Of a stretch of 64,000 nucleotides of DNA, positions 3,862 to 6,100 are shown one piece after another. Location: IMG/VR virus record IMGVR_UViG_3300043772_003377, positions 32,001-96,000 of that record; one strand, given 5' to 3'. The notes under the pieces are model-generated. The model was not told the origin of the DNA and made no database searches. It saw only the letters and a program-made list of their open reading frames with translations. Source of the stretch: a virus. The position numbers and the translations under genes were made by a program. Positions within the stretch are counted from its first letter, which is position 1, and each line of letters opens with the position of its first letter.

Positions 3862-4980
3862 TTATTTCAAATAATTTGAGACCAATGATTCAAATGAATC
3901 ATTCCCTTTTGAATATTGTCCAGTGTCAGGAGAATATTTCGATAGATTCATAAATTTTTTTAATTCGTTTAAATCCCCTTCACTATCTTTAATGTTCTCT
4001 TTAAAAACCTTATTATTTTTCTCCAAAGAAATCTTATTAATTTTTCCATTTTCCCAATAAAAATTCCATCTGATTTTTGGGTAAACTTCAGTCGAGAATC
4101 GTTCCTTTTCTTTTGCTAAGTCGGTAGATAATTTTTGACTATATTTTATTTCGTATATCGCAATATAATTACCCAAATTTTTAGTATCAGGTGTTTGAAA
4201 TTTACCACCACTATCTTTACATCTTAATGGGGTAACATTAGACGCAAATTCGCCGGCGCCATTTTTTGAATTACAAAAATAACTGCCTTGGATAATATAC
4301 TTCGGATCATATTTTTTTGGTATAACCGTTTCCTTAACATCAGTTTTTATGTAATTAAAAGTTAAATTAACCGATATAAATTGACCTGGCCTTAAATTCG
4401 CCGGTCTATTTGGGGAATTGTCAGTAAATCCACTCGTATTGATAACTACAGATGAGGTTACCTTTGGGACTGAATCATCGACAGAAACTCCAATACTCTT
4501 TAAATAAGTTGTTAATTGTGGTAAAAATATGTCAGCTCTTTGTTTTGCCAAATTTAAATTATTTCTGTAACCATTATCATTTGGTGTTTTTGGATTTTTT
4601 GTGGTTCTATCATTTTCTAAATCATACCCTGTCGCCTTATTTCCCCAACTATTACTGGCCGAACCCATAACCGATATGTTGGTTAATTTTATATTTTTAT
4701 CTTCTAACATTTTTTTTGATTCAGGGTTAGAATTTATTGATGTTAAAATTCCTTCAGTAAATGATTTATAAGATTCCGGTGTTAATGTATTTGAACCTGT
4801 CGAATAAACAACATCTTGAGAATAAGGTATTGATATGGATTGGGTTGTTGTTTCTGTTGTTTTTGTACCCCCTTCAACCCCCTGTTTCGTTACGGTTGTT
4901 GTTTTTTGTTCGGATATGACCTTACCCTTTTCATAATTTACAAGGTATTGTATCCTTAATAATTCTTCTTTAATATTCAT
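3862..4980 (-). CDS. Leader-bearing protein with an OmpA-C-like peptidoglycan-binding domain
   Basis: Leader MNIKEELLRIQYLVNYEKGKVISEQ; YSTGSNTL...ISVMGSAS...NLNLAKQRA resembles the OmpA C-terminal domain. Confidence 0.5.
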   Translation of the reverse strand: MNIKEELLRIQYLVNYEKGKVISEQKTTTVTKQGVEGGTKTTETTTQSISIPYSQDVVYSTGSNTLTPESYKSFTEGILTSINSNPESKKMLEDKNIKLTNISVMGSASNSWGNKATGYDLENDRTTKNPKTPNDNGYRNNLNLAKQRADIFLPQLTTYLKSIGVSVDDSVPKVTSSVVINTSGFTDNSPNRPANLRPGQFISVNLTFNYIKTDVKETVIPKKYDPKYIIQGSYFCNSKNGAGEFASNVTPLRCKDSGGKFQTPDTKNLGNYIAIYEIKYSQKLSTDLAKEKERFSTEVYPKIRWNFYWENGKINKISLEKNNKVFKENIKDSEGDLNELKKFMNLSKYSPDTGQYSKGNDSFESLVSNYLK

Positions 4981-5025
4981 ACCTATAAATATATTATGTT
5001 AGTGTTTAATTTACTATTAATAGGA

Positions 5026-5032
5026 TATTTAT
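5026..5032 (+). promoter_or_regulatory. Candidate phage late promoter TATTTAT (divergent partner on the minus strand at 4985-4991)
   Basis: GATATTTATA lies 6 nt before the ATG at 5039; the motif recurs upstream of many genes in the sense orientation. Confidence 0.55.
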
Positions 5033-5038
5033 AACTAT

Positions 5039-5461
5039 ATGAAACTCAAACAATTAATTAGAGAACATTTATTATTAGAAAAAAGAATAGGTCAGTTGGT
5101 GGATACTCTTGAGGTAACTATGTCCTTCGATTTAATCAAACATATGGGTCATGCAGAACAAAGGTCTATGGGTATTGGTAGGGAAAAAATTGAGGACTAC
5201 GATATGAGGCCTGTAACCAATATGGAAATCAGATACTTCATCGACCTTTTTAAAAGAGATATTGCGGAAAAAATATTAACAGGGGAAATTAAAAATGAAG
5301 AACCTTTTGTCATTAGAAGTTCATCAAAAGGTTTGGCAATTCCTCTTAAACCAATTCATAACGCAGGGACTAATTGGAAATTAGTCGTTTTAACCGTTTG
5401 GAGGGAAAGTAATATTCACAAATTAAAAACATTTGAAGGGCAAGTAATCATTGAGAAATAA
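5039..5461 (+). CDS. Leader-bearing hypothetical protein, possible BECR/RelE-like RNase fold
   Basis: Leader MKLKQLIREHLLLE; HAEQR near the N-terminus and LVVLTVWR near the C-terminus resemble DUF4258-type proteins. Confidence 0.4.
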   Translation: MKLKQLIREHLLLEKRIGQLVDTLEVTMSFDLIKHMGHAEQRSMGIGREKIEDYDMRPVTNMEIRYFIDLFKRDIAEKILTGEIKNEEPFVIRSSSKGLAIPLKPIHNAGTNWKLVVLTVWRESNIHKLKTFEGQVIIEK

Positions 5462-5484
5462 AAAAGGGGACAATCGTCCCCTTT
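5461..5484. terminator. Intrinsic terminator shared by the 5039 gene and the minus-strand RNA
   Basis: AAAAAGGGGAC-AATC-GTCCCCTTT hairpin; the U tract is longest on the minus strand. Confidence 0.85.
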
Positions 5485-5652
5485 GGTTTTGAAATTTTTG
5501 TCTGAGCTTGTGATCTAATCGGTTATCCGCGTAATGAACAAAGGTACCTTCAAATTATTCCATCTTAACGATTGAGGTTTACCACACCTTGAGTTGATCG
5601 TCACTCATTCCGCCGAGTTGTTAGGGTAATCTCGGTTCAACCCTTTTTCATT
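5461..5652 (-). ncRNA. Candidate structured non-coding RNA of about 190 nt with tandem pseudoknots
   Basis: GC-richer ORF-free interval bounded by a TATATTTG promoter (5656-5663) and a terminator. Crossing stems AGGGU/ACCCU and CCGAG/CUCGG, plus UGAGU/ACUCA, AGGU/ACCU and ACGAU/AUCGU. Confidence 0.6.
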
Positions 5653-5655
5653 ATA

Positions 5656-5663
5656 CAAATATA
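5656..5663 (-). promoter_or_regulatory. Bacteroidetes-type -7 promoter element driving the candidate ncRNA
   Basis: TATATTTG on the minus strand. Confidence 0.65.
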
Positions 5664-5683
5664 CAAACTTTTTTTGATTATTC

Positions 5684-6037
5684 CTAATCTTCAATAAAAT
5701 AAATTTGAATGTTAATGTAATTAACACCCCTCATATTAAGATTTGTATTTGTCATAATAAGATAATTTTTTAATTCAAATTCAAATTCTTTGTGATTAAA
5801 TTTAACATCAGAACAATGTTCAAATGAGTAGTTTGACAAATGAAAATCATCCATTTGGTCGTAACAAGTTCTGTCAATATGTTTTGATATAAAATCATCG
5901 CCAAGGGTTATTGTAACATCCACCTGAAGATGAGAAAAATCTTCTCTATATCTTGTAACATATATATTTTCAAAAAACGGATATTGTTTTTTTAAAATGA
6001 TGTTTAATGTCTTTTCGTATCTTTCTTTTTCTGTCAT
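5684..6037 (-). CDS. Hypothetical protein
   Basis: 117-aa ORF preceded by TATTTAT (plus-strand 6044-6050). Confidence 0.7.
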   Translation of the reverse strand: MTEKERYEKTLNIILKKQYPFFENIYVTRYREDFSHLQVDVTITLGDDFISKHIDRTCYDQMDDFHLSNYSFEHCSDVKFNHKEFEFELKNYLIMTNTNLNMRGVNYINIQIYFIED

Positions 6038-6100
6038 TTTTTTATAAATATTCTATTTTTTTATTAATTGAATATATTTATAAATAAATTGAATTTTCAT

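Follow-up and report, generated by a model that had tools for sequence, protein, structure and literature searches.

The window analysed here, a 64,000-nt stretch of viral DNA with a G+C content of about 30%, comprises bases 32001–96000 of a 104.5-kb IMG/VR virus record (IMGVR_UViG_3300043772_003377) whose completeness is estimated at 33%. Its minus strand carries, at positions 5457–5663, what is very probably a real gene for a structured small RNA. The predicted product is a non-coding RNA of about 190 nt, a divergent, 3′-extended member of an uncatalogued family of RNAs of about 135 nt. We tentatively read it as the RNA partner of the phage's own RegB/RelE-like protein, here called ORF140, which it would serve as inhibitor, pseudo-substrate or regulator and with which it would form a mobile accessory cassette; the ribonuclease (RNase) activity, the binding of RNA to enzyme and the direction of the effect are what we infer. 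ORF140 (140 aa; 5039–5461, plus strand) is convergent with the RNA gene and has an invariant N-terminal helix ending in LLLEK. A first-pass annotation of this stretch had described a small RNA built from tandem pseudoknots, possibly a mimic of a type III antitoxin; its observations and its interpretation both hold in part.

All parts of the RNA gene lie on the minus strand, and its transcription is predicted from a promoter box at one end and a terminator at the other. The promoter box, TATATTTG (5656–5663), is present as the first-pass annotation had claimed. It is of the Bacteroidota −7 type, whose consensus is TAnnTTTG, and it fits that consensus; before it, a TTTG −33 box at the usual spacing is absent in the window's clade. 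The RNA begins with an H-type pseudoknot (5613–5644), in which stem 1 joins AGGGU (5640–5644) to ACCCU (5623–5627) and stem 2, crossing it, joins CCGAG (5631–5635) to CUCGG (5613–5617). Its loops, UGAA, AUU and AACAA, are 4, 3 and 5 nt long, each stem alone is worth −5.6 kcal/mol, and both stems can form together. Hairpin 2 (UGAGU-GACGAUCA-ACUCA, 5590–5607, with a conserved ACGA in the loop) and hairpin 3 (AGGU-GUGGUAA-ACCU, 5575–5589) follow. Alignment to the family model then places an invariant CAAUC linker and a 3-bp remnant of hairpin 4, AUC-GUUAA-GAU, at 5562–5574. Further on, GAAGGUACCUU (5541–5551) aligns in cmsearch with the family terminator loop, GGUACC, and is no longer a terminator here; a clade-specific 3′ extension (5485–5540) holds AACCGAUUAGAUCACAAG, which resembles the loop motif of other RNA types described below. 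The gene closes with an intrinsic terminator (5457–5484), made of a 9-bp hairpin at 5463–5484 and a U tract. One base from this hairpin is the ORF140 stop codon (5459–5461, plus strand), so that the two genes lie tail-to-tail and share the hairpin, which probably also ends ORF140 on the plus strand. The −7 box and the gene's own terminator bear out the earlier view of a separate small RNA unit. Folded as a single sequence, the RNA does no better than shuffles (z = −0.98), and the case for structure therefore rests on comparison with relatives. No tRNA or tmRNA was detected in the window, and no second copy of the RNA was found in its genome fragment.

We refer to the family as type A and built a covariance model, R1, from its typical members. 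The exact 31-nt pseudoknot sequence occurs in nine viral contigs, some with wholly different flanks, and looser patterns located the type A core in 52 viral contigs and 80 metagenome contigs. In four close relatives, reached via neighbouring proteins, the whole intergenic stretch is 96% identical. A typical member of about 135 nt consists of the pseudoknot, CGGAAUG, three hairpins and a terminator. The invariant 5′ module, GGGUUGAACCGAGAUUACCC-nnACAA-CUCGG-CGGAAUG, which forms the pseudoknot, is present in the window. Thereafter the typical RNA has a hairpin 2 with the loop ACACGA, a hairpin 3 reading GG-UGAAAAU-CC, the CAAUC linker, an 8-bp hairpin 4 and, in its 3′ part, GAAACUACAC followed by a long terminator hairpin with the GGUACC loop. 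Scans of the viral collection with fixed loops and either both stems free or only stem 2 free returned no new variants; variants of stem 2 came only from the metagenome scan.

The comparative evidence for the fold comes from an alignment, A6, of 46 distinct sequences and 35 base pairs, judged against 500 shuffles. Standard pairs occupy 97.0% of its pair cells, compared with 91.4% in the shuffles and 38–54% with slid partners. Both-sided, compensatory changes are found in 19 of the 35 pairs, and none of the 500 shuffles reaches the observed values. Covariation is seen in five of the six helices. The closing pair of stem 1 is U-A in 22 sequences, A-U in 17 and of another kind in 7, with the other four pairs constant. 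For stem 2, the 80 metagenome contigs supplied one double change from G-C to U-A, with the next pair mismatched, and one G-U. Compensatory changes affect four of the five pairs of hairpin 2 and five of the eight pairs of hairpin 4, the first pair of hairpin 3 is A-U in 16 family members, G-U in 15 and G-C in 13, and the family terminator covaries well. The UGAGU/ACUCA and AGGU/ACCU hairpins that had been proposed at first pass are present and covary across the family, and the proposed terminator is present as well. We accept the H-type pseudoknot, likewise proposed there, as probable because stem 1 covaries and stem 2 has in its favour its energy, its invariance and a single compensatory event. 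The tandem arrangement is not supported beyond this one pseudoknot. The second, between the ACGAU loop of hairpin 2 and a downstream AUCGU, is paired in 62% of its cells, a figure that the shuffled and slid controls match, and none of its pairs changes on both sides. Within the region of the first pseudoknot about 40 nt hardly vary, including positions at which a compensatory change would preserve the fold; such constancy suggests base-specific recognition by a partner.

The carriers of type A RNAs are large Bacteroidota phages of fresh water. Every sequencing run that contains DNA of the window and has a recorded habitat is a metagenome from a lake or another freshwater source. Depth over the pseudoknot in two lake DNA runs is about 4–10 times that of the flanking bins with coverage, and many contigs of those runs continue from the RNA core into unrelated sequence; both features fit several co-occurring phages that share the core. 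Compared with phages whose ORF140 proteins share only 35–44% identity with its own, the window has an RNA core that is 80–85% identical, and the range is 80–92% among phages with ORF140 proteins that far apart. A search of about 186,000 prokaryote species genomes (GTDB) did not find the core pattern, and in a collection of isolated phages (INPHARED) nothing matches the locus at the DNA level. Rfam 15 gave no family at gathering score anywhere in the window, and a relaxed scan (E up to 10) of 401 bases around the RNA gave a best E of 0.21, covering the terminator only. The RNA belongs to no described Rfam family, in line with the new RNA class that had been one of the first-pass suggestions. 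A likeness to 16S rRNA segments was dropped, since about nine shared 7-mers are expected by chance.

Compared with these relatives, the window copy is a variant. It scores 80.3 bits in a cmsearch with R1 (E 7.3e-19) over 5529–5650 on the minus strand, with hairpins 2 and 3 and the CAAUC linker in family order. Its hairpin 2 differs from that of the relatives through compensatory changes, and its hairpin 4 has 3 bp where the family has 8. Of the family terminator only GAAGGUACCUU is left, and the nearest relatives (L011 and L018) already carry a mutated form of it; an extension of about 90 nt beyond its position leads to the new terminator. From this alignment, the window copy is best described as a divergent variant that has lost the family terminator and been extended, not as a typical member. 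The loop of the new terminator reads ACGAUU; this and AACCGAUUAGAUCACAAG recall the loop motif of the type B and C RNAs introduced below. A chimeric origin from type A and that motif was considered and rejected, the alignments not being significant (p 0.04–0.3; one lower value reflects the U tract), and model R1 does not match type B or C RNAs. The pairing of CAAUCGU with ACGAUUG, which the first-pass annotation had offered as a terminator switch, is confined to the window's near-identical clade and is not a family feature. The AUG-AAA-AAG-GGU-UGA reading frame noted there does exist in the window and is not kept by relatives; neither this MKKG micro-ORF nor a 40-aa open reading frame at 5605–5727, which relatives also fail to keep, was retained as a gene.

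Two routes of transcription are open to the family. In about half of its loci a full TTTG-N19/20-TAnnTTTG promoter stands at a fixed distance from the knot; in the remaining loci that promoter is lacking and the knot begins 3–25 nt after the preceding gene's stop codon. From this division the RNA appears to be transcribed either from a dedicated promoter or as the 3′ end of a message that begins upstream. Both routes are possible in the window: the gene upstream on the same strand, which encodes 117 aa (5684–6037, minus strand), is not separated from the RNA by a terminator, and its start is preceded at 45 nt by a TATAAATA box, which resembles a T4-type late promoter. A late transcript of the 117-aa gene may thus also carry the RNA. 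One aquatic metatranscriptome contained two 151-nt contigs over ORF140 (5158–5438; 92% and 99% identity) and none over the RNA; being contigs from an RNA library that possibly contains DNA, they indicate neither expression nor silence. Elsewhere in the window, a near-identical promoter box, TTGTATATTTGTAT, lies just 5′ of the ATG of a CAP-like gene (2635–2652). This ATG comes 5 nt past the box, which suggests a leaderless or near-leaderless message.

ORF140 matches no Pfam or PHROG family. In RelE/RegB-like endoribonucleases a four-stranded antiparallel sheet is packed with two helices, and RegB has a first helix in addition. An AlphaFold model built from 22 relatives (pLDDT 84) has helices at residues 2–23, 37–43, 61–69 and 72–81 and strands at 25–28, 90–94, 99–109, 112–117 and 137–139. 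Its matches in the PDB are weak (Z 3–4.8), and about half of those listed are RelE, HigB, YoeB, ParE, BrnT or CdiA-CT toxins; T4 RegB (2hx6) is among them at Z 3.0. ToxN is absent from the fold matches listed, an absence that does not exclude a ToxN fold. In BFVD the model matches a protein of the Tenacibaculum jumbo phage PTm1 (E 1.7e-5) and a T4-like 'site-specific RNA endonuclease' annotated as RegB (E 1.2e-3). Across the relatives, H38, Y54 and E63 are invariant and R42, R57 and R122 nearly so, a set compatible with an RNase. On the strength of the modelled fold we regard ORF140 as probably, though by no means securely, a RelE/RegB-like endoribonuclease.

A TATAAATA box also lies 47 nt upstream of ORF140 (4984–4991, plus strand), again resembling a T4-type late promoter, and is mirrored at about 5026–5033 on the minus strand by one serving the divergent gene at 3862–4980, the two boxes standing back-to-back between the gene starts at 4980 and 5039. 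In all, six TATAAATA boxes, corresponding to the T4 late-promoter consensus, precede gene starts by 45–64 nt (window positions 4983–5034, 6042–6090, 14498 and 39986); their role as late promoters is a prediction. At the other end of ORF140, a 35-bp direct repeat (1.9 copies, 82% matches; 5397–5465) covers the 3′ end of the gene through the stop codon, its last bases touching the RNA terminator.

The association between RNA and protein extends to relatives of both. A profile search with ORF140 recovered 34 viral loci, and in 28 of them a convergent small RNA unit, complete from promoter to terminator, stands right behind the gene (the count combines 26 of 30 loci that were read with 4 scored by nhmmer). 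These RNAs fall into three types, A, B and C. In type B, GGAAnACGAUUnAGAUACAA lies in the 20-nt loops of two hairpins, and type C has a hairpin with the loop AACGAAACAAUC and a terminator with the motif in its loop; in both, the stems vary between phages and the loops are constant. Examples of types B and C lie on the minus strand behind ORF140 relatives at L028:2908–3010, L035:2900–3045 and L042:2900–3045, and GGAAnACGAUUnAGAUACAA usually occurs twice per RNA. The paired loci occupy at least three contexts: one follows the major capsid gene, one lies between a sigma factor and a membrane protein of 441 aa, and another is the arrangement of the window. Sister phages with a major capsid protein 95–99% identical gave 67 loci reaching at least 1.2 kb past the capsid gene, and of these 65 lack ORF140 and the RNAs alike, a single one carries both, and another carries ORF140 without an RNA. 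ORF140 and type A RNA are both absent throughout four large relatives, including a complete genome of 309 kb. The motif of types B and C is rare, occurring in three contigs of 50–80 kb only beside ORF140. Two records with ORF140 and no adjacent RNA (G006 and G014) each have an identical copy of the motif at another site; in G006, a complete 321-kb phage, this copy sits in a promoter-driven hairpin 23 kb from ORF140. Among the roles first proposed for the RNA, that of partner to the convergent RNase-like gene at 5039 is the one best supported by context, through the 28 of 34 loci and the sister phages. The overall pattern, in which ORF140 is nearly always near such an RNA and the RNA is often alone, is that expected of a toxin and its antidote.

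Some observations on these loci stand apart from the question of partnership. The C-terminal part of the window's major head protein (PHROG 138; 2–817) reaches 95–99% identity in 80 viral contigs (L191–L270), the best of at least 597, and the DNA just past this gene is highly variable among those same phages. The G006 hairpin reads GAGAC-GGACAACGAUUAAGAUACAA-GUCUC (L106:1440–1530, at about 281,700 in the genome) and has a TTTG-N19-TATATTTG promoter, one among several promoter-like boxes there. A weak R1 match in the same genome proved to be a small open reading frame with a terminator and not a relative, and a motif match in L234 falls inside a coding region. In the ORF140 tree, RNA type clusters (8 changes, compared with 18.5 when shuffled); we do not take this as evidence of co-evolution, as relatives share labels anyway.

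Several results weigh against a partnership. The solved-structure matches of ORF140 all have Z below 5, a level that can reflect only a common arrangement. About half of the type A loci have the RNA without ORF140. In the sigma-factor context the RNA is resident and ORF140 is present in only about 45% of loci, and the adjacency there may stem from a single insertion. A 93%-complete genome of 272 kb contains the RNA and no ORF140 anywhere (positive control 5/5), so the RNA has some use without ORF140. Among 15 hand-picked large records, 5 have both, 4 only the RNA, 2 only ORF140 and 4 neither, an unstriking distribution. The 635-kb uncultured phage LR745206.1 encodes an ORF140 relative (43% identity) with no RNA beside it. 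Homology among types A, B and C is not supported by R1 or by local alignments, and the asymmetry described above also fits a gene that is prone to insert beside small RNA genes.

The strongest of the other explanations is one that we consider somewhat unlikely. The RNA would act independently, in trans, on a conserved target of host or phage, such as the transcription or translation machinery or an mRNA, and ORF140 would have been inserted beside it. The orphan RNAs, including the one in the 93%-complete genome, speak for such a role, as does the near-invariance of about 40 nt with the base-specific recognition it suggests. The constant neighbours of the family are, moreover, not ORF140 but the sigma factor (PHROG 351) and the 441-aa membrane protein. 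In L012:2415–5217, L016, L017 and about 40 further loci the order is sigma factor, 0–3 kb of variable small genes, type A RNA and membrane protein, the last being a multi-pass protein of 400–440 aa and of no known family. Neither the sigma factor nor the 441-aa protein was found in the window's 104-kb fragment, which at 33% completeness is uninformative. Against an independent role, no target was found; the window's clade has left the sigma-factor context, yet its RNA is still tail-to-tail with ORF140; ORF140 relatives face a small RNA in several unrelated contexts; and 65 of the 67 sister-phage loci are without either gene.

A cis-acting element would be a quite improbable alternative. In this account the structure is a stabiliser or processing signal in a 3′ untranslated region, or a riboswitch-like or antitermination leader equipped with a terminator. 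Several relatives have the pseudoknot only 3–10 nt past the upstream stop codon with no recognisable promoter between, orphan loci present structured RNA, terminator and membrane-protein gene in that order on one strand, and the window has no terminator between the 117-aa gene and the RNA. However, a full TTTG-N19-TAnnTTTG promoter lies directly upstream in about half of the loci, the flanking genes vary by context with the next gene often on the opposite strand, and Rfam, searched at E up to 10, offers no riboswitch or leader family that matches. The RNA resembles compact ligand- or protein-binding H-type pseudoknots such as the preQ1-I and SAM-II aptamers and the T4 gene 32 leader in its 5-bp stems, A-rich third loop and near-invariant knot. 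It differs from them in having no Rfam match, in the many loci without a regulated gene downstream, and in its three further hairpins.

The pseudoknotted RNA also invites comparison with type III toxin–antitoxin systems. Phage phiTE reportedly escapes ToxIN by means of a pseudo-ToxI RNA, a copy of the repeat of the host antitoxin. The precedent is a phage-encoded RNA proposed to neutralise an RNase, as is ours; unlike pseudo-ToxI, the window RNA has no host counterpart in the genomes searched, and its candidate RNase is the phage's own. A decoy of this kind, mimicking a host type III antitoxin so as to escape abortive infection of the ToxIN type, would agree with the compact pseudoknot, the A-rich flanks and the early, host-type promoter. 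We nevertheless hold it to be very improbable, given that the RNA has no tandem repeat, that Rfam yields no match in the window at gathering scores and none with E under 0.2 within the 401 bases surrounding the RNA, that the core is absent from the roughly 186,000 prokaryote genomes and so no host template was found, and that the RNA is nearly invariant across phages that must infect different hosts. The convergent layout and the RelE/RegB-like neighbour likewise tell against the mimic envisaged at first pass.

Type III antitoxins consist of short tandem direct repeats and lie upstream of the toxin on the same strand, with a terminator between (Blower et al. 2012, PMC3401426). Their partner toxins have a ToxN/AbiQ-type (Kid/MazF-like) endoribonuclease fold, cut the antitoxin RNA and are bound and neutralised by it. 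Like ToxIN, CptIN and TenpIN (PMC3401426), the locus described here sets a pseudoknotted RNA beside the gene of a small endoribonuclease, in our case a predicted one; the pair acts as an accessory unit that is mobile, and the 'antidote' can also occur as an orphan. Unlike them, the window RNA is single-copy: Tandem Repeats Finder gives no array in the RNA body, and the only arrays nearby are the 35-bp repeat at 5397–5465 and trivial repeats of 6–8 bp. It is also convergent with the protein gene and has its own promoter; the protein resembles RelE and RegB, with no ToxN/AbiQ-type toxin among its fold matches; and the carriers are large phages of lytic type, not bacteria or plasmids.

A further explanation, that the sequence is a DNA-level element or a chance structure in an intergenic spacer, would account for the shuffle-like single-sequence fold (z = −0.98) and the lack of a transcript among the metatranscriptome contigs. 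It is very improbable in view of the strand-specific G-U pairs, the 19 compensatory pairs in 46 sequences, and the promoter box and terminator found at the two ends of the unit in each lineage.

One likeness to T4 RegB, which ribosomal protein S1 activates, comes from the 635-kb phage: its ORF140 relative adjoins, tail-to-tail, a gene whose product resembles an S1 RNA-binding domain by eye (L109:1501–2260 in LR745206.1). RegB has an extra first helix on a RelE/YoeB-like core, and the existence of a possible anti-RegB partner has been raised (PMC3014915). Like RegB (PMC3014915), ORF140 is small and phage-encoded and is predicted to have a core of two helices and a sheet to which a further helix is added at the N terminus, and one of its viral structural matches is annotated as RegB. 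ORF140 differs in having no sequence similarity to RegB and a weak fold match (Z 3.0 to 2hx6). RegB, further, is an early gene with no known RNA partner, whereas ORF140 has a late-promoter-like box and a leader that possibly targets the capsid.

If the RNA is indeed the partner of ORF140, the system could work as follows. The host-type promoter would drive the RNA, which might in addition form the end of the late transcript from upstream, while ORF140 would be produced under its late-promoter-like box with a leader that may direct the protein into the capsid. The folded RNA would bind the enzyme or serve it as a pseudo-substrate, restraining or regulating it, and the RNA gene and ORF140 would move between genomes as one accessory cassette.

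A stronger version of this scheme, which we judge unlikely, makes the RNA the antidote of a virion-delivered ribonuclease of RegB/RelE fold and the orphan copies a form of immunity. The enzyme would be made late from the TATAAATA box, taken into the capsid by its LLLE-K leader and injected with the DNA, shutting off host messages. The RNA, among the first transcripts from host-type promoters, would titrate the enzyme so that phage messages survive, and orphan RNAs in other phages would protect these against the injected enzyme of rivals. Such a pair would constitute a new class of RNA–protein toxin and antidote, distinct from type III in its toxin fold, its non-repeat RNA, its convergent layout and its carriage by phages, and would settle whether an 'anti-RegB' exists for RegB-like enzymes.

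The structured RNAs that phages encode are poorly catalogued, and the type A family, abundant in lake viromes, is absent from Rfam 15. Its core of about 40 nt is far better conserved than the proteins encoded around it. Even without a link to ORF140, a near-invariant pseudoknot in phages of different hosts implies a conserved molecular target. Should the RNA neutralise or regulate a RelE/RegB-like RNase, RNA antidotes would extend past the three type III families to a new fold and layout, and the finding would point to a phage strategy for controlling its own, possibly injected, ribonuclease.

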